Shown: piece after piece, positions 17,704 to 27,598 of the stretch
Numbering within the stretch: position 1 is the first letter of the stretch
Layout: the number at the start of each line of letters is the position of its first letter
NCBI GenBank assembly: GCA_001563335.1
Contig: LRSL01000086.1
Coordinates: forward strand, 15,087 to 79,086
Direction of reading: 5' to 3'
From: Candidatus Thorarchaeota archaeon SMTZ1-45
Lineage (GTDB): Archaea; Asgardarchaeota; Thorarchaeia; Thorarchaeales; Thorarchaeaceae
Length of the DNA: 64,000 nucleotides
The notes under the pieces: generated by a model
The model's database searches: none
The model's input: the letters and a program-made list of their open reading frames with translations, nothing else
What the model was told of the DNA's origin: nothing
Made by a program: the position numbers and the translations under genes

Positions 17704-17741
17704 TAGTTAGGTGCCGAACTAGTTGATTAGGGTCCGAACTA
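17704..17741. promoter_or_regulatory. Tandem imperfect palindromes, probable operator of the adjacent MarR
   Basis: TAGTTAGGTGCCGAACTA and TGATTAGGGTCCGAACTA directly before the GGAGG SD. Confidence 0.55.
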
Positions 17742-17755
17742 ATAGGAGGCTGTCT

Positions 17756-18226
17756 GTGTTGGATGAACCTGAAATCAGAGAGATGTGTCTGAATCTTCTA
17801 GATACTGGGTGGCCAGCGTATCTGACAACAATTGATGATGGGGGATTTCCTCAAACACGTGCAATGTTCAATCTAAGGAATAAGGAGAGGTTTCCCAAGC
17901 TCATACCAATCTTTGATGGACACAGTTCAGACTTTATGATTCTCTTCTCAACAAATACATCATCAACAAAGGTAAGAGACATCAGGAGAAACGGTGCTGT
18001 TTCAGTTTATTATTGCAATCCTGAGAACTGGTGTGGAGTCATGTTTGGTGGAAACATTGAGATTGTTCAGGACTCCGAGCTGAAAAAAGCAATTTGGCAT
18101 GAGGGGTGGGAACGGTATTACGCTGGAGGTTATGATGATCCAGATCATACTCTTCTAAGACTCATACCCACTACAGCTCGTGGATGGACTGGGAGTTCAA
18201 CTTTCAAAATTGACTTAGGTGATTAG
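17756..18226 (+). CDS. Pyridoxamine 5'-phosphate oxidase-like / general stress protein
   Basis: YLTTIDDGGFPQTRAM, FSTNTSSTKV, YAGGYDDPDHTLL; start moved to the GTG after GGAGG. Confidence 0.85.
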   Translation: MLDEPEIREMCLNLLDTGWPAYLTTIDDGGFPQTRAMFNLRNKERFPKLIPIFDGHSSDFMILFSTNTSSTKVRDIRRNGAVSVYYCNPENWCGVMFGGNIEIVQDSELKKAIWHEGWERYYAGGYDDPDHTLLRLIPTTARGWTGSSTFKIDLGD

Positions 18227-18228
18227 AA

Positions 18229-18681
18229 ATGATGTCACAACGAGAGGGTGGATTCTTAATTACCCAGATTCATCATCTGGGGAGAAGAGTGTTTGCAGAG
18301 CTACTGAAAAAACGTGACATTGAGATTAGTCCTGGACAAGGACGGATTCTGTTTTCACTCTGGAAAAAGGACGAAGTGCCTATCAATGTCCTCGCTAAAC
18401 GAACTCTTCTGCGAAAGTCAACATTGAGCGAGCTGCTAGATAATCTTGAAGCTGCAGGACATATCAAGCGTGTTCAGTCAGAGGAGGATAAGAGAAAGAC
18501 TTTGATTCGATTGACTGAAACATCTAGAAGTCTTGAGAGAATGTACATAGAGGTCTCCGTCGAAATGACAAATCTGTTCTATAAAGGATTTACACCTGAA
18601 GAAATAGACCTGTTTGAGAAGTACCTCCGTAGAGTATTGGATAACTTGGTTGATGTGGAGTCAAGTGAGGTTGGAGAATAG
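18229..18681 (+). CDS. MarR-family regulator
   Basis: wHTH with KSTLSELLDNLE...SEEDKRKTLIRLT. Confidence 0.92.
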   Translation: MMSQREGGFLITQIHHLGRRVFAELLKKRDIEISPGQGRILFSLWKKDEVPINVLAKRTLLRKSTLSELLDNLEAAGHIKRVQSEEDKRKTLIRLTETSRSLERMYIEVSVEMTNLFYKGFTPEEIDLFEKYLRRVLDNLVDVESSEVGE

Positions 18682-21244: not shown

Positions 21245-24200
21245 TTGAAAGTTGAGAAACGTGATAAGAGAATAGTGGAGTTCGATGATTCCAAGATTGA
21301 GGCGGCTATAACAAAGGCATTTGAATCGATCAATGCGGACACAGGTCCTGTACGTGGTCTAACAAAGGAAGTCGTTCAGATAATTCACGAGAAGGAAAGA
21401 GATGTCATCCATATTGAGGAGATACAAGACATTGTTGAAGACACTCTGATGCTCAGAGGTTTCACAGAGATTGCTCGACGCTATATGAAATACCGAGAGA
21501 AGCACAATGAGGCTCGGAAGATACTCCAGATGATGGGAGTTGTTGATGACCTCAAGTTTGGGCCTAATGCAGCAACCGTCCTCTCGAGATATCTTCTGAA
21601 GGATGAGGAGGGAAATCCAACAGAAACCCCATCACAGCTCTTTCGTAGAGTTTCAGGAGCTGTGGCGAGTATCGAAAAGAAGTATGACAAGAATGCTGAT
21701 GTGAGGGAATATGACGATCTCTTCTATTACATGATGGCAAACCTTGAGTTTCTACCAAACAGTCCGACTCTCTTCAATGCAGGTACAGAGATAGGCCAGT
21801 GCAGTGCCTGTTTTGTACTACCTATTGAGGACAACATGGACTCAATATTTACTTCACTCAAACATATGGCTGTGGTTCAGAAATCAGGCGGTGGTACGGG
21901 GTTCTCATTTTCAAGATTAAGACCAGTAGGATCAACCGTTGGAACCACTGGGGGAGTGGCTAGCGGTCCAATCTCTTTCATGAGAGTATACGACACTGCA
22001 ACAGAGATCATCAAGCAGGGTGGACGTCGCAGAGGAGCAAATATGGCCATACTCAGATGCGATCATCCAGACATAATGGAATTTATAGCTTGTAAGTCCG
22101 ATAAGCAGACCTTTAGAAATTTCAACATCTCGGTTGCATTAACGAGTGAGTTCATTAATGCCCTACAGGGTGACAAAGAAATCAACCTTGTTGCACCTCA
22201 TAATGGCGTAAAAATTCAGAGTATACGAGCAAGAGTGATTTTCGACGCGATTGTATATAATGCATGGAGTACAGGAGATCCAGGAATAGTCTTCATCGAC
22301 CGTATTAATGATGAACATCCACTAGGTGGCGAGCTGATAGAATCAACAAATCCATGCGTATCCGGAAATACTATAGTAAGTACAGATGTTGGTCTGTTGA
22401 GTATTCAAGATGTACCTGGGGTGATAAAGACTGCAAAGAAACTTGTTTATTGTCTTAAGACCAAAGAGGGATACCAAGTCAAAGTCACAAATGATCATCG
22501 AATACTAACGACAACAGGGTGGAAGCAAGCTGGAGATTTGAGTAAAGGTGATTTTATTTGCCTTCAGAGTACAGAAGGAGGATTTGGTAAAACAGGGAAT
22601 CTTAGAATTGGTCAAATTCTTGGGTGGTATGTTGGTGATGGTTGGAATACAGGAACTGACCAACGTGCTACTCTTGCTTTCTATGGCGATGATAAAGGTA
22701 AGTTAGCTCAGTACTTCTGTGATATTGTAAATGAGGAGCTTGAGTCCGACTTAGTGGTCATTAAAAGCAAGAATCGTGAGGAAGTTAGATCAAGAAGAAT
22801 CTTGAATCTAGTTCAAGAGTGGGGGATGGAATCAAAGGAGATATCAAATCCAATTCTCTCTTCATCTGCTGATTGCCAAAGAGGTTTCCTACAAGGGTTA
22901 TTCACTGCAGACGGTTCGATTCAGGGAAAGCCTGAGAAAGGAATCTCAGTGCGACTATCGCAAAGTAATCTGGACAGTCTTCGTAGTGTACAGATTATGT
23001 TGTTGAATTTCGGTATTGCTTCGAAAATCTATGATAATCGTCGACGAGAACAAATGCGATTATTACCTGATAGTAAAGGGGAACCAAAACACTACAAGAC
23101 TAAGGCAAATCATGAGCTTGTCATATCAAAGGAGAATATTGTGAAATTCCGTGATCAAATCGGTTTTCTGTTAGAGTACAAACAGAGTCGTTTAGTCAAA
23201 GGTCTTGATTCATTGAGTATCCGTGGGCCATATAAGGAGAATTTTCTGGCTCGGTTTGAATCACTCACACCTCAATTGGAGGAAGATGTCTTTGACATTG
23301 TTGGTACTCCACATTGTGGATTTGTGGGGAATGGGATTGTTGTGCATAATTGTGGTGAACAACCCCTGATGCCCTATGAGTCATGCGTCTTGGGAAGCAT
23401 CAACCTCTCACGAATGGTCAAAGATGGAGAGATCGATTGGTCAAGACTTGAAGAGGTCGTAAAGCTCGCGGTTCGTTTTCTTGATAATATCATCGATTTA
23501 AACGTCTATCCAGTGCTTGAGATTGAACAGGTTACCAAAGCCAATAGGAAGATTGGTTTAGGCATCATGGGATTTGCTGAGCTTCTTATTAAATTGAGAA
23601 ATCCCTATGACTCAGAGAAGGGACTAGAAAAAGCCGAAGAGGTGATGTCATTCATTCGACAAAAGGCTGAGAGAGCATCAAGCGAACTTGCAAAGATTAG
23701 AGGTAATTTCGAGAACTTCGCACTCTTGAAAAAGCGTAATAGGTGGAAACGAAATGCATCTCTGATCACTGTTGCACCAACGGGCAGTATTAGTCTAATC
23801 GCACAAACAAGCAGTGGTATTGAACCATTATTTGCAATCGCTCACAGTCGTATGCTTGCTGAGGGAATCCATCTGAGTGAAGTGAGTCCGCTATTCGAGA
23901 GAGTTGCAGTGGAAAGAGGTTTCTGGAATGACGAAATAGAGCATGAAGTCGCAAGATCAGGTTCGGTTCAACAAATTGATGGAGTTCCAGATGATATAAA
24001 ACAGGTCTTCAAGGCAGCACATGAGATAAGTCCAGAATGGCATGTTAGAATGCAGGCGGCTTTTCAGAAGCATACTGATAATGCTGTAAGTAAAACTGTT
24101 AATCTGCCAAACAGTGCCACGACTGAAGATGTTGAGCAAATATTTTTGCTAGCTAATCAGTTGGGACTCAAGGGTACAACTGTATTTAGAGATGGATGTC

Positions 24201-24250
24201 TAGGCGGAGTTCAGGTCTTGTATCCAGGATGTCAAAATTGCGATTCCTAG
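21245..24250 (+). CDS. nrdJ: Adenosylcobalamin-dependent (class II) ribonucleotide reductase with ATP cone and intein
   Basis: ATP cone VEKRD, PNSPTLFNAG, SACFV, QGGRRRGANM, TNP|CGEQ, CVLGSINL, APTGSIS, C-terminal CQNC. Confidence 0.95.
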   Translation: MKVEKRDKRIVEFDDSKIEAAITKAFESINADTGPVRGLTKEVVQIIHEKERDVIHIEEIQDIVEDTLMLRGFTEIARRYMKYREKHNEARKILQMMGVVDDLKFGPNAATVLSRYLLKDEEGNPTETPSQLFRRVSGAVASIEKKYDKNADVREYDDLFYYMMANLEFLPNSPTLFNAGTEIGQCSACFVLPIEDNMDSIFTSLKHMAVVQKSGGGTGFSFSRLRPVGSTVGTTGGVASGPISFMRVYDTATEIIKQGGRRRGANMAILRCDHPDIMEFIACKSDKQTFRNFNISVALTSEFINALQGDKEINLVAPHNGVKIQSIRARVIFDAIVYNAWSTGDPGIVFIDRINDEHPLGGELIESTNPCVSGNTIVSTDVGLLSIQDVPGVIKTAKKLVYCLKTKEGYQVKVTNDHRILTTTGWKQAGDLSKGDFICLQSTEGGFGKTGNLRIGQILGWYVGDGWNTGTDQRATLAFYGDDKGKLAQYFCDIVNEELESDLVVIKSKNREEVRSRRILNLVQEWGMESKEISNPILSSSADCQRGFLQGLFTADGSIQGKPEKGISVRLSQSNLDSLRSVQIMLLNFGIASKIYDNRRREQMRLLPDSKGEPKHYKTKANHELVISKENIVKFRDQIGFLLEYKQSRLVKGLDSLSIRGPYKENFLARFESLTPQLEEDVFDIVGTPHCGFVGNGIVVHNCGEQPLMPYESCVLGSINLSRMVKDGEIDWSRLEEVVKLAVRFLDNIIDLNVYPVLEIEQVTKANRKIGLGIMGFAELLIKLRNPYDSEKGLEKAEEVMSFIRQKAERASSELAKIRGNFENFALLKKRNRWKRNASLITVAPTGSISLIAQTSSGIEPLFAIAHSRMLAEGIHLSEVSPLFERVAVERGFWNDEIEHEVARSGSVQQIDGVPDDIKQVFKAAHEISPEWHVRMQAAFQKHTDNAVSKTVNLPNSATTEDVEQIFLLANQLGLKGTTVFRDGCLGGVQVLYPGCQNCDS
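22355..23350 (+). mobile_element. Intein (332 aa) with LAGLIDADG homing endonuclease
   Basis: Starts CVSGNT, block B VTNDHRI, LAGLIDADG blocks ILGWYVGDG and FLQGLFTADG, ends VVHN followed by Cys; removing it restores TNPCGEQ. Confidence 0.93.
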
Positions 24251-24260
24251 AGACCATTGC

Positions 24261-25100
24261 TCAGGTGGACCGCTTGGCTTCTTCATCAATGATGGAACGT
24301 CTAGTATTGATCAGCTTGTTATATGTGCTTTTGAGAGCTTTTTCAGCGTCAAAGAACCATAGTTGTTTTGCTAACAACCATTTGGTCTTTGATTCTCGAA
24401 AGCTACGTGACAGTTGTGTATAGTTCGTCTTCAGCTGTCCGATTACTACTGTAGAGTCCTTGCACCGATCACGAAGAGATCGGATCTTTTCCTCTAATGG
24501 AGCTAAGTCCTTAGCGAGTGTTCGCTCAACAGCATCTCTGATATGGCTGTTTCCGTTCAGGTTGATAATCCTGATACGAGACCAGCGCAACGTATTTCCT
24601 CCATTTTCACGAACGAGTCTACTAAACTCGCTAGAGTCGATCAATACTCGTTCATTTTCAGAACCTAGAATTCTTCTTCGTTCTCTTGACCTGAGTAGTG
24701 GGAAGAGAATCACACCTGGCCTGAGGCGGACCCCAGGAGTTTTCCTTATTAGTCTCTCAACGTATTTTTTCTGTTGTGCAGTTGGATTACTAAAACTGAA
24801 TGAAACAATCGAATAGACGCGATTTTCATATGATTCCTCCAGCTTCATTCGGGCTGTCGGTATCTTTCGAGTTTTAATGAATGATGTAACAGGTTGATTT
24901 TGAAGAATTGTGTCATGAAGTTCGGAATATCCATGAACAATAAACACACCTTTCCGGATTCGTTGAACACCTTCTACTGCCGAGAGTTTCCTAGACACAC
25001 CTTTAGTTCCGTCAGGAGAACCTAATAGAATGATTAATCGAGAATCACCTTTCAATTCGGAGGCATCTGGGAGGATGCCTTCTACACTGGCTTCGGTCAT
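24261..25100 (-). CDS. Basic hypothetical protein with a ChrB-N/PaaX-like segment and C-terminal coiled coil
   Basis: YSIVSFSFSNPTAQQKKYVERLIRKTPGVRLRPGVILFP and LAKQLWFF resemble that family's pattern (from memory, not searched). Confidence 0.65.
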   Translation of the reverse strand: MTEASVEGILPDASELKGDSRLIILLGSPDGTKGVSRKLSAVEGVQRIRKGVFIVHGYSELHDTILQNQPVTSFIKTRKIPTARMKLEESYENRVYSIVSFSFSNPTAQQKKYVERLIRKTPGVRLRPGVILFPLLRSRERRRILGSENERVLIDSSEFSRLVRENGGNTLRWSRIRIINLNGNSHIRDAVERTLAKDLAPLEEKIRSLRDRCKDSTVVIGQLKTNYTQLSRSFRESKTKWLLAKQLWFFDAEKALKSTYNKLINTRRSIIDEEAKRST

Positions 25101-25365
25101 TTTCTATAGCACATTTGTCCTTCAAACAACAGCAAAAGGTATTCAAAGGTCATTGGTGACACATTTGAGCGACTGCAATAATCGTTAATATCTTTGTCTG
25201 GCATGTTTAAATACTTGTATTTTAGTAAATATTTTTGATAACCTTATAAATGAAATTTAGGACTTTCATAGTAATTTTTTTCAATTTTAAGGGATAAGAA
25301 AATGAGTTTCTGTAACTAGAATAACTTTACTCTTTATTCGACACACATTGTTTGAGGTGACATCT

Positions 25366-25446
25366 ATGCACTTCGATGATGAAGATCTTTGGGATAGTGA
25401 TGACGACTTCGACGATGACTGGGAAGACGACGACGACGACTGGTAG
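25366..25446 (+). CDS. 26-aa acidic Trp-rich micropeptide MHFDDEDLWDSDDDFDDDWEDDDDDW
   Basis: GAGGTGA SD 5 nt before the ATG; mixed GAT/GAC codons; 17 of 26 residues are D/E. Confidence 0.7.
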   Translation: MHFDDEDLWDSDDDFDDDWEDDDDDW

Positions 25447-25518
25447 GTCGAGGTTGGTTAGTCGGTCTCGATAGAACTCTTCCGGTCCAATCTTATCCCA
25501 GACTTGGACGTGAATGCT

Positions 25519-25584
25519 ATGGCTAAAAAGAAACCAGCAGCAAAAAAATCGACCAAAACTGAAACTAAGAAAAAGAAGAAGTAA
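25519..25584 (+). CDS. 21-aa Lys-rich micropeptide MAKKKPAAKKSTKTETKKKKK
   Basis: GGACGTGA SD-like site upstream; 11 of 21 residues are Lys, with mixed AAA/AAG codons; terminator follows. Confidence 0.65.
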   Translation: MAKKKPAAKKSTKTETKKKKK

Positions 25585-25596
25585 CAATATAGGACC

Positions 25597-25635
25597 GGGA
25601 GAAGTCTATCAGACTTCCCCGTTCTTCCTTTTTTT
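25597..25635 (+). terminator. Hairpin plus T-tract closing the micropeptide pair
   Basis: GGGAGAAGTCT-ATC-AGACTTCCCC then ttcttccttttttt. Confidence 0.6.
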
Positions 25636-25642
25636 ACATCGT

Positions 25643-27598
25643 TTATTTTGCGTGTTTAATTTCTTCAACAGATTCTGGGTTCACTAGGGATGAGGTATCA
25701 CCCGGATCTTCTCCCAAATAGGCAGCTCGGATCATTCTCCGCATCACTTTGGCGTTTCTTGTTTTAGGTAGATCAGAAACAAAAAGAACATCACGAGGAG
25801 TAAGTGGTTTACCCATTGCTATAGCCACAGATTGCTTGAGCTCCTCTCTTAGTTTCTCAGATGGTTCAACTCCAGGATTAAGGACACAAAATACAACAAG
25901 TTCATTGAGCTTGATTTTGTGCGGCACGCCTATCGTTGCAGCCTCAGCTACAGCAGGATTACTCACAAGAACTGACTCAGCCTCTGCAGGTCCAAAGCGC
26001 TTGCCTGCCACTTTGATGATATCATCAGACCTACCAAGAATATACCAAAGTCCATCTGAGTCAATCGCGGCAAAGTCCCCATGGACCCAAGTATTTTTCC
26101 AACGAGACCAGTATGTGTTTTCATATCTCTCGGGATTCTTCCAAAATCCACGGGTCATTCCTATCCAGGGTGATTTGATAACGAGTTCTCCAACTTTATT
26201 TCGTACAGGAGTTCCATCCTCATCAAACACGTCTGCGGCAATTCCAGGACAAGGTCCAGAAAATGCACAAGCCTTCAAGGGCAATAGAGGGTTTCCCATC
26301 ACAATACCACCTGAGATTTCTGTGCCACCAGAATAGTTGATTATTGGTATTCTCTTCATCCCTACTTTCTCGAAAAGCCACATCCAAGGATCGGGATTCC
26401 ATGGTTCGCCAGTGGAGCCAAAGTAACGAAGTGAAGAGAGATTGTGCGGCTTAATTGGGTCTTCTCCATGGGTCATCAACAATCGAATCAGTGTTGGGGA
26501 TACTCCAAGTATCGAAACCTTATGTTTCTCAACAATCTCCCAAAGGCGTCCAGGATGCGGGTAGTCAGGAGCACCATCATAAAGGAAAAAGGTCCCTCCC
26601 AGAATCAAAGCCCCAAATACCAGCCAAGGCCCCATCATCCACCCCATGTCAGTCATCCAGTAAATCAGCTCACCAGGGTGCAAGTCTGTTCCAAAAGCCA
26701 TGTCTTGAGCTGATTTAATTGGAAATCCACAATGGGTGTGTACTGCTCCTTTTGCCAGTCCCGTAGTGCCAGAGGTGTAGATAATCATCATAGGCGATTC
26801 TGCATCTGTTATCTCTGTACTAGCTGAATCAGATTGGTCAGAAATGAGGTCGTGCCACCAATAGTCTCGCTTAGGCTTCATTTCAATTGATACTTCAGTC
26901 AGATTCAGAACAATCATATGTTCCAATGAGGATATCTTTTCAGCAGCCTCATCTGCGATTGGTTTCATGGGAATAGTCTTGCCTCTGCGGATAGCCCCAT
27001 CAACTGTGAAAATTGCTTTGGCATCAGCATCACCCAATCGGTCGACAATTGCATTAACTCCAAATCCTGAGAATAGTGGGAGGATTATGCCGCCAATTTT
27101 AGCTATTGCTAGTAGCGCAACTGTAATCTCAGGAATCATTGGCATGTAAATTCCAATTGAATCGCCTAATCCAAGTCCAAGTTCGCGGAGTGCATTTGCT
27201 GTCTTATTCACCTCTCGATACAAATCACCATATGTCATTGAACGAGTTGCACCATCTTCGCCCTCCCATATCAGTGCAAGTTGTGTTTCAGTATTTGTGC
27301 CCATGTATTTATCTATGCAATTGTGAATAATGTTCAGCTTCCCATTGACACACCAACGTGGCCATGCAATACCATTTGAGAGATCCACAACTTGGTCATA
27401 AGGTTCATAGAACTCAATATTAAGAAACTTCAGAAGTGCGTCTGTAAACCATGCCACATCCTCTGTCGAACGTTGCATGAGTTCATCAAAGTCTTCTATT
27501 TCATGCAACTTCATGAATCTCGTGAGGTTGGCCTTTTCTACATGTTCCGATGTAGGTCGCCAGACGATCTCGCCTCCAAACTCAAAGGTCTCTTTCAA
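25643..27598 (-). CDS. acs: AMP-forming acetyl/acyl-CoA synthetase
   Basis: IIYTSGTTGLAKG, STGEPW, SGGTE, GRSDDIIKVAG, LPKTRNAKVMRR. Confidence 0.9.
   Translation of the reverse strand: MKETFEFGGEIVWRPTSEHVEKANLTRFMKLHEIEDFDELMQRSTEDVAWFTDALLKFLNIEFYEPYDQVVDLSNGIAWPRWCVNGKLNIIHNCIDKYMGTNTETQLALIWEGEDGATRSMTYGDLYREVNKTANALRELGLGLGDSIGIYMPMIPEITVALLAIAKIGGIILPLFSGFGVNAIVDRLGDADAKAIFTVDGAIRRGKTIPMKPIADEAAEKISSLEHMIVLNLTEVSIEMKPKRDYWWHDLISDQSDSASTEITDAESPMMIIYTSGTTGLAKGAVHTHCGFPIKSAQDMAFGTDLHPGELIYWMTDMGWMMGPWLVFGALILGGTFFLYDGAPDYPHPGRLWEIVEKHKVSILGVSPTLIRLLMTHGEDPIKPHNLSSLRYFGSTGEPWNPDPWMWLFEKVGMKRIPIINYSGGTEISGGIVMGNPLLPLKACAFSGPCPGIAADVFDEDGTPVRNKVGELVIKSPWIGMTRGFWKNPERYENTYWSRWKNTWVHGDFAAIDSDGLWYILGRSDDIIKVAGKRFGPAEAESVLVSNPAVAEAATIGVPHKIKLNELVVFCVLNPGVEPSEKLREELKQSVAIAMGKPLTPRDVLFVSDLPKTRNAKVMRRMIRAAYLGEDPGDTSSLVNPESVEEIKHAK

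Follow-up and report, generated by a model that had tools for sequence, protein, structure and literature searches.

Acidic Tryptophan Micro-Genes Linked to a Basic Orphan Protein in Asgard Archaea and Bathyarchaeia

Results

The Locus

In a 64,000-nucleotide stretch of DNA from Candidatus Thorarchaeota archaeon SMTZ1-45 (contig LRSL01000086.1, positions 15,087 to 79,086 of the forward strand; hereafter the window, whose own coordinates are used throughout), two very short open reading frames lie side by side between a divergent gene for a very basic orphan protein and the convergent gene acs. The acidic frame, MHFDDEDLWDSDDDFDDDWEDDDDDW, runs from an ATG at 25366 to a TAG stop at 25444–25446 and its 26 amino acids (aa) comprise 15 Asp, 2 Glu and 3 Trp. 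The lysine frame, MAKKKPAAKKSTKTETKKKKK, runs from an ATG at 25519 to a TAA stop at 25582–25584 and has 11 Lys among its 21 aa. A first-pass annotation made from the letters alone had described these frames of 26 and 21 aa, an A+T-rich region and a GAGGTGA Shine–Dalgarno (SD) site before them and a hairpin with T-tract behind, all of which we found exactly as claimed; the A+T content is 77% at 25200–25345, 5′ of the acidic frame, vs. 59% window-wide. Its observation of mixed synonymous codons was equally correct, as both Asp codons (6 GAT and 9 GAC) and both Lys codons (AAA and AAG) are in use. The features of the locus are as follows:

24261–25100, − strand: gene for the 279-aa very basic orphan protein (open reading frame), divergent from the acidic micro-gene
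25153–25199, no strand: 47-base conserved block TTGGTGACACA...CGTTAATATCTTTGTCT upstream of the 279-aa gene, near-invariant in 12 same-genus loci
25317–25340, + strand: candidate archaeal promoter box TAGAATAACTTTACTCTTTATTCG, about 40 bases 5′ of the acidic ATG, with a conserved core TTTAC(T/A)C
25354–25360, + strand: SD-like GAGGTGA, 5 bases before the acidic ATG
25366–25446, + strand: acidic tryptophan micro-gene, 26 codons and stop (open reading frame and conservation across the family)
25447–25518, + strand: spacer of 72 bases with conserved blocks, holding the SD-like GGACGTGA at 25506–25513
25519–25584, + strand: lysine-rich micro-gene, 21 codons and stop (open reading frame and conservation)
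25591–25635, + strand: hairpin (25591–25626) and T7 run (25629–25635) that close the unit

Conservation of the Two Frames

We took a census of the 39,719 ATG-started frames of 12–60 aa in the genome (3.54 Mb) and found exactly one with at least 50% Asp/Glu and exactly one with at least 40% Lys. The two outliers are the adjacent acidic and lysine frames, which excludes chance. Of the 24 other genomes in the genus, 17 matched the 542-base intergenic region, against none of 16 genomes outside it, and the eleven full relative loci show 69–78% DNA identity. With the window counted, the acidic frame is intact in all 12 same-genus loci; its changes in length are of whole codons, and the position of its stop is fixed while the codon varies among TAA, TAG and TGA. 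The motif GAGGTG(A/G) is found 5–7 bases before the acidic ATG in all 12 loci, and an SD-like site precedes each of the 22 distinct acidic peptides compared.

The substitution pattern was computed for the 11 of 15 distinct type-1 cassettes that contain both frames, the four without a lysine frame being omitted. The variable columns at the first, second and third codon positions numbered 5, 6 and 18 of 25 in the acidic frame and 9, 6 and 12 of 20 in the lysine frame. The lysine peptide has conserved ends, MAKKKPAKK and KKKK, and a fast-evolving middle, with 260 nonsynonymous vs. 135 synonymous codon differences. This frame is kept in 10 of the 12 same-genus loci, having been lost once by deletion and once by decay. 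The first-pass annotation had let its case depend on the survival of frames and SD sites in close relatives, and that survival is complete for the acidic frame and its SD site and incomplete for the lysine frame. On this comparative evidence, we regard both frames with high confidence as real genes.

The surrounding signals are conserved as well. The 47-base block at 25153–25199 is recognizable in two further cassette types and in another genus and contains, on the − strand, an A/T box about 25 bases before GTGTCAC; it is probably the promoter of the 279-aa gene, or an operator. The GTGACAC core of this block is found again in the SD region of the acidic frame, GAGGTGACAT. From its position, the TAGAATAACTTTACTCTTTATTCG block is a candidate promoter box; a sigma-70 promoter scan was set aside, as the model is unsuited to an archaeon. 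The spacer varies between 67 and 72 bases among cassettes, with insertions or deletions of 1 and 4 bases. Three codons upstream of the lysine ATG, a GTG at 25510 provides an alternative start, and as GTG, ATG or TTG stands at that place in 11 of 11 cassettes, translation may begin there rather than at 25519. The closing hairpin has a predicted energy of −18.6 kcal/mol and is conserved in 11 relatives, where six of its nine pairs show compensatory changes and a T-rich run comes after it, although a scan with a simple terminator pattern returned no sites and did not flag it. The T7 run ends 7 bases from the stop of the convergent acs gene (25643–27598, − strand).

The Acidic Peptide Family and Its Range

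The acidic peptides form a previously undescribed family present in two archaeal phyla; our motif-string and topic searches of the literature, which covered titles and the first parts of abstracts, gave no published description of the acidic-Trp or lysine genes. To locate members we relied on DNA patterns, since a profile of 22 peptides recovered 8 known loci from 400 genomes but missed the window's own and was too insensitive. The pattern for Met-x-Phe-(Asp/Glu)4-x-Trp was found in 28 of 400 genomes of the phylum, the reversed control giving 1 match. The positive genomes are concentrated around the window's own: the pattern is in 17 of 27 genomes of the genus (the window's genome excluded), in 7 of 17 from one sister genus, in 1 of 7 from another and in 2 of 315 that lie beyond the family.

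The same pattern combined with an SD site was then scanned over one genome from each of 185,579 prokaryote species. This gave 77 loci, 76 of them archaeal. Going by record titles, Thorarchaeota contributed 20 loci, Promethearchaeota 4 and Hermodarchaeota 1, while Bathyarchaeota, Bathyarchaeia and Bathycorpusculum together contributed 44. The remaining archaeal loci come from Nitrososphaerota (2), Crenarchaeota (1), "uncultured archaeon" entries (3) and Nanoarchaeota (1), the last being doubtful as a 21-aa frame with one Trp. The single bacterial locus, a 13-aa frame, was taken as a chance match, and 2.9 million viral contigs contained no match to the pattern. The first-pass annotation had suggested stand-alone eukaryotic motifs in an Asgard archaeon; members are common in Bathyarchaeia too, outside the Asgard archaea, and the family is therefore not an Asgard-specific eukaryote-like trait.

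The peptides fall into 27 of Asp type, the form found in Thorarchaeota, and 48 of Glu type, the form found in Bathyarchaeia, a typical example of the latter being the 22-aa MIFEEEDEWEEGEDEEWEEEEW. Constant across the family are the extreme negative charge, an aromatic residue 3, a Trp every 5–10 residues, a length of 19–42 aa and an aromatic or acidic C-terminus, whereas the identity of the acidic residue, Asp or Glu, is not. The C-terminal residue is Trp in the window; relatives end in Trp, Phe, Leu or Glu. A phmmer search of the acidic peptide against PDB sequences gave no matches at expect (E) values up to 10, and an Atlas search with a 42-aa fused-type peptide was uninformative (best score 0.79).

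Several related forms were seen. A second acidic paralogue with four Trp (e.g., MHFDDDDLWEEEDWDDDEWDDNDDDW) is common in the window's relatives, where it lies 3′ of a gene for a metallo-beta-lactamase-fold protein, and the block follows homologues of window genes 17723–18226 (PNPOx-like) and 18229–18681 (MarR). The whole-genome census of small frames showed that this paralogue is not present in the window's genome. We considered its neighbor as a relative of the 279-aa protein and rejected this, the neighbor being the metallo-beta-lactamase-fold protein. In some peptides (L163, L177–L182; e.g., MSRRKTPPKEEEEEEEEEWEDWGEEEEEWEEEEEWEEEEEEW), a Lys/Arg head and an acidic Trp body are joined in one frame. 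Outside the window, the same genome encodes at about 3700–4211 of contig C118 (+ strand) a small Cys-rich, zinc-ribbon-like protein with a long acidic Phe/Trp tail ending in DDDDEW, an architecture that recalls LysW-type carriers.

The Basic Orphan Protein as the Steadiest Partner

The first-pass annotation presented the two peptides as a dedicated unit and did not mention the 279-aa protein encoded on the other side of the promoter region, yet it is beside this protein that the acidic frame stays. The protein has a net charge of +21 and an isoelectric point (pI) of 10.3, and the 31 family members compared range from +18 to +35 in charge and from 9.9 to 11.4 in pI. No Pfam, NCBIfam or PADLOC family was matched, and the family amounts to 48 clusters among 1.84 billion representatives. 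Of the 27 Asp-type loci, 23 have a homologue of the basic protein as their divergent upstream gene; the remaining four comprise two that lie where a contig ends and two that represent the second paralogue.

For the converse test, we used the basic protein as the anchor, disregarded the peptide and sought an acidic Trp/Phe frame within 1.5 kb. The basic-protein profile matched 75 of 400 genomes of the phylum (59 of the 85 family genomes, 13 of the 19 from a second family and single genomes from two others). From the 78 places listed, we picked 20 non-randomly, namely 16 from other Thorarchaeota-family genomes, three from the second family and one from a third. An acidic Trp/Phe frame was found beside the basic-protein gene at 19 of these 20 Asgard loci, and at the single miss the sequence ends 292 bases past the gene. 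Using a profile of the most distant members, we detected the basic protein in 18 of 201 evenly drawn Bathyarchaeia genomes, and the acidic frame was present at 16 of 19 places, that is, at 15 of 18 intact genes and one decayed copy. As a background rate, the same scan over the window's 3.54-Mb genome gave 11 acidic matches, one of them with at least two Trp.

The arrangement of the genes differs between the groups. In Thorarchaeota, the basic and acidic genes are divergent and 221–356 bases apart; in the second Asgard family, the basic gene is followed on the same strand by the lysine frame and then the acidic frame; in Bathyarchaeia, the acidic frame is downstream of the basic gene on the same strand or convergent to it. 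The fact that the linkage persists despite the rearranged gene order argues for a shared function. Other genera of the Thorarchaeota family (L145, L147, L151, L154, L155) have a different acidic Trp frame, e.g., MEEWDDEDEDWDDDEWEDDEDW, convergent at the 3′ end of the basic gene, which is thus flanked by two acidic micro-genes.

In a tree of 42 basic proteins, which leaves out the decayed copy and most close relatives, the Thorarchaeota-family proteins (support 99/97) and those of the second Asgard family are placed apart from the Bathyarchaeia rows. The basic protein of locus L163 (genome G340, Asgard-binned, contamination 11%) nests among the Bathyarchaeia rows, for which gene transfer or a binning error are possible explanations. 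No fused acidic tail was seen in 48 representative basic proteins, the highest Asp/Glu share in any 15-residue window being 0.40. The basic-protein profile searched against PDB sequences gave coiled-coil noise alone (GrpE, E 0.099; prefoldin, E 0.27), and an internal duplication of the N-terminal and middle parts was not supported (hhalign probability 1.6%).

Discussion

A Proposed Three-Gene Module

Our preferred, though tentative, reading is that the two micro-genes and the divergent 279-aa gene constitute an old three-gene module of Asgard archaea and Bathyarchaeia in which the acidic peptide binds the basic protein; we would rate its chances as slightly below even. If translated, the 26-residue product would be a disordered polyanion with a net charge of about −17 and regularly spaced aromatic anchors at Phe3, Trp9, Trp19 and the C-terminal Trp26. 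It would bind the +21 neighbor protein through charge plus Trp insertion and could serve that protein as a nucleic-acid mimic or escort, or be its antagonist; the likely ligand of the protein would be nucleic acid. The lysine peptide (net +11) would be facultative, serving as counter-ion to the acidic peptide, competing for it, or binding nucleic acid on its own. The conservation of charge, aromatic spacing and length without a fixed acidic residue suggests a disordered polyanion rather than an enzyme substrate or a folded domain, and the exchange of Asp and Glu between the phyla, with Trp spacing and the aromatic C-terminus persisting, fits charge-driven binding.

Some observations speak against such a module. 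Basic-protein profiles found nothing in three of four tested genomes with a Glu-type peptide beside ABCE1, and among the 201 Bathyarchaeia genomes, 11 were positive for the peptide pattern and 18 for the basic protein, with one common to both. The second paralogue, moreover, follows the metallo-beta-lactamase-fold gene instead of a basic-protein gene. Because many of the peptides occur without a detectable basic-protein gene, the peptide cannot depend on the basic protein everywhere. Acidic codons 1–7 (25366–25386) are identical in DNA across the 11 cassettes while later Asp codons vary between GAT and GAC, which hints at an extra constraint at the RNA level. Finally, Atlas's model of the 279-aa protein resembles clusters bearing ChrB_N (ChrB_N/PaaX_M) over residues ~77–279, with a template modeling score of 0.43–0.53. 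This fold is a lead from the model without sequence support: PF20229 and PF20803 had no match in 19 members of the basic family (E up to 1) or in the whole genome (E up to 10), and the 279-aa protein differs from proteins with the ChrB N-terminal or PaaX middle domain in that it does not contain the ChrB_C domain.

One of the closest parallels to binding of this kind is prothymosin-alpha, which forms disordered polyelectrolyte complexes with linker histone H1 or with a folded domain (PMC7661507, PMC11971343). The likeness lies in highly and oppositely charged low-complexity partners, for which binding by charge alone would be expected, and in the ability of the acidic partner to bind a folded domain that is basic. 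Those proteins, however, have 110–200 residues, lack spaced Trp anchors and are not encoded together, whereas the locus described here would give separately encoded peptides of 21–26 residues and a folded basic orphan and has no sequence kinship to them. For a Trp of an acidic motif seated in a hydrophobic pocket, the contact of eIF3j with the eIF3b-RRM is a precedent (PMC2824034).

The Two Peptides as a Possible Pair

Under a second reading, the two peptides themselves would be the unit and form a charge-complementary disordered complex or coacervate, the lysine peptide binding nucleic acid, the acidic one acting as its chaperone or antidote, and the basic protein being a regulator or bystander. 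The distribution of the lysine frame bears on this directly. Of 15 distinct type-1 cassettes, 11 have it 50–100 bases 3′ of the acidic frame, as do 3 of 5 type-3 cassettes and 4 of 4 assessable sister-genus cassettes, and it adjoins the acidic frame, in reversed order, at 3 of 3 loci of the second Asgard family. In Bathyarchaeia, it is present at 5 of 19 basic-protein loci, and of the 48 Glu-type loci three have it, two of these with a strong SD of its own. The pair proposed in the first-pass annotation does, then, recur: with the acidic frame first in three genera of the family, and as a pairing also in the second Asgard family and a few Bathyarchaeia. The fusion of a Lys/Arg head to an acidic Trp body in L163 and L177–L181 points the same way.

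Against this, the lysine frame has disappeared from two of the 12 same-genus loci while the acidic frame stayed. It is in none of nine second-paralogue cassettes, at only two of 16 loci in other Thorarchaeota genera and missing from 45 of 48 Glu-type loci, and the middle of its peptide evolves fast. What had been called a dedicated two-gene unit therefore consists of real, conserved genes but is not the core unit, and we consider the pair reading rather unlikely. The likeness of the lysine peptide to histone H1 or histone tails, also suggested earlier, is one of composition only: such tails are joined to a globular or histone-fold domain, whereas the frame has 21 codons with its own start and stop and matches no Pfam family. 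Outside the window, a longer frame at C15:42924 (+ strand) of the same genome that by eye resembles an FKBP-type prolyl isomerase opens with a Lys/Ala-rich tail like the lysine peptide.

ABCE1 and Other Gene Context

The neighbors seen are either the basic orphan, nrdJ and acs or ABCE1, THUMP, asparaginase, CGI-121 and Topo VI-B. The nrdJ–acs synteny that the first-pass annotation named for comparison holds within one genus and is broken elsewhere. The B12-type ribonucleotide reductase gene in the window (21245–24250, + strand) contains an intein with a LAGLIDADG domain (Pfam Intein_splicing, LAGLIDADG_3), its product having 1001 aa vs. 669–738 aa in four relatives.

A role in translation is suggested by the Glu-type loci, in 33 of 48 of which the ribosome-recycling factor ABCE1/RLI (identified by Pfam Fer4_RLI, Fer4 and two ABC_tran) is encoded on the same strand by the next gene or the next but one. 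The acidic Trp peptide could accordingly be imagined as a free-standing analogue of acidic/aromatic tails that dock on translation factors, such as the N-terminal acidic motif of eIF3j/Hcr1, an accessory factor of ABCE1, or the C-terminal tail of the ribosomal stalk protein aP1, and would tune ABCE1 or other factors, with the lysine peptide contacting ribosomal RNA. In eIF3j, a Lys-rich stretch follows the acidic motif. Trp9, Trp19 and Trp26 of the window's peptide lie within Asp/Glu runs, and the docking element of eIF3j is likewise an acidic motif centered on a Trp, held in a hydrophobic pocket of the eIF3b-RRM (PMC2824034). The N-terminal region of eIF3j is reported on ABCE1 near NBD1, where the same patch takes an 18-mer of archaeal aP1 and is termed a "multivalent interaction patch" (PMC7780240).

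This is a likeness of motif and no evidence of descent. eIF3j has ~260 residues with a helical body, a KERR motif and a ribosome-binding C-terminal half (PMC2824034), whereas the acidic gene ends after 26 codons, has no longer, fused form at any locus and shows no detected homology to it. The relation of Glu-type peptides to ABCE1 is one of adjacency only: the two genes have separate signals, a TATA-like box for ABCE1 and a T-rich stop region for the acidic gene, and as the ABCE1 proteins of these loci are 71–98% identical, one inherited arrangement may account for the adjacency. In the window's genome, ABCE1 is away from the cassette, on another contig (C81), with no such acidic frame beside it. 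Moreover, the aP1 tail encoded by this genome, with a Leu/Phe motif at its end, is unlike the acidic peptide, and archaea are without eIF3b. Taken together, we judge the translation reading to be unlikely. In some Bathyarchaeia (L077, L101, L105, L112, L125), an unnamed protein of ~135 aa is encoded next to the Glu-type gene, with ABCE1 on its other side in three of the five loci.

A broader scheme would combine these elements into a three-part polyelectrolyte switch of free-standing linear motifs, in which the acidic-Trp peptide docks on the orphan protein in Thorarchaeota and on ABCE1 or the ribosome in Bathyarchaeia, the lysine peptide competes, and the whole is an archaeal forerunner or analogue of the acidic/aromatic and lysine-box contacts built into larger eukaryotic translation factors such as eIF3j. 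We offer this as speculation and believe it to be improbable.

Cis-Acting, Carrier and Artefact Explanations

The frames might also be leader or sensor frames whose hard-to-translate runs control something downstream, or incidental frames within an RNA. Acidic runs and lysine runs disturb ribosomes, and the DNA-invariant opening codons would suit such a role. So would a predicted 7-pair helix at 25489–25521 (ATAGCAA/TTGCTAT in relatives), which would mask the start of the lysine frame, but with one compensatory change and a pair weakened in the window itself it is weak evidence. There is, however, no downstream gene for a leader peptide or attenuator to act on, as the hairpin and T run are followed by a convergent gene, and elsewhere the acidic frame is 3′ of the basic gene or convergent to it. 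The features of the peptide persist across two phyla while the DNA and the acidic residue change, and none of 10 weak Rfam matches at the locus passed its threshold (best 19.6 bits vs. a cut-off of 47). A cis-acting function thus appears very improbable.

We hold it to be equally far-fetched that the acidic peptide is an amino-group carrier like LysW/ArgW or gives rise to a modified peptide or cofactor derived from Trp. LysW and ArgW are small acidic proteins that dock on basic enzyme surfaces and have a zinc ribbon (four Cys), a C-terminal Glu for attachment and, close to that end, a Trp. The peptide shares the small size, the acidity and a Trp at or near its end, but it has no Cys and hence no zinc ribbon, and no fixed terminal Glu. 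No ATP-grasp (LysX/ArgX), radical-SAM or other maturase gene was among the neighbors examined, and the wholesale replacement of Asp by Glu argues against residue-specific chemistry.

That the frames are artefacts, whether chance low-complexity frames, antisense sequence of the region where acs stops or by-products of an 86-aa opposite-strand frame (25327–25587), is hardly credible: the reverse strand of the lysine frame is indeed T-rich just after the acs stop, and antisense frames of the cassette are open for at least 79 aa in 8 of 11 relatives, but they are open because GAY and AAR codons have no stop complements, the lysine frame persists where acs is not a neighbor and so is not merely antisense of its stop region, the variation falls on sense third positions, the 1- and 4-base changes in the spacer break any single antisense frame, and both frames are unique in the genome while the acidic family is spread over two phyla, in each of which the lysine frame is seen again. 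A toxin–antitoxin pair was considered and rejected, the locus being single copy and syntenic across the genus, with a basic-protein tree that follows lineages, no PADLOC family and no viral matches.

Relation to Eukaryotic Acidic Peptides

The first-pass annotation also likened the acidic peptide to Sem1/DSS1 and to the WASP/WAVE acidic region. DSS1/Sem1 and CSNAP are described as small acidic disordered cofactors of PCI complexes and BRCA2, with the role of a glue or DNA mimic (PMC8442969, PMC7641332). The resemblance consists in small size, acidity and Trp or Phe among Asp/Glu. DSS1/Sem1 has ~60–90 residues, two acidic/aromatic sites and a C-terminal helix, whereas the acidic peptides have 19–42 residues, 26 in the window. 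Neither Pfam DSS1_SEM1 nor any other family was matched by the window's peptide (E up to 0.01) or by 20 relatives (E up to 10), a weak negative, as HMMER filters are harsh on such low-complexity composition. In WASP/WAVE, the acidic Trp tail ends a protein with WH2 and central (C) elements; here it is free-standing, with an SD alone before its Met. By size, architecture and profile searches, the genes do not belong with prothymosin/H1, eIF3j, DSS1/Sem1 or LysW, and as far as sequence can tell the acidic-Trp/lysine module has no eukaryotic kinship; the idea of stand-alone eukaryotic motifs is not borne out.

Implications

Gene callers skip frames as short as these, and a family found in two archaeal phyla has in consequence been left unannotated. 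If the peptides are made, they would be among the most highly charged gene products known and would provide a minimal natural system for disordered, charge-driven binding. The neighborhood of ABCE1 makes a role in ribosome recycling directly testable, and the peptides offer a handle on the family of basic orphan proteins found in Asgard archaea and in Bathyarchaeia.

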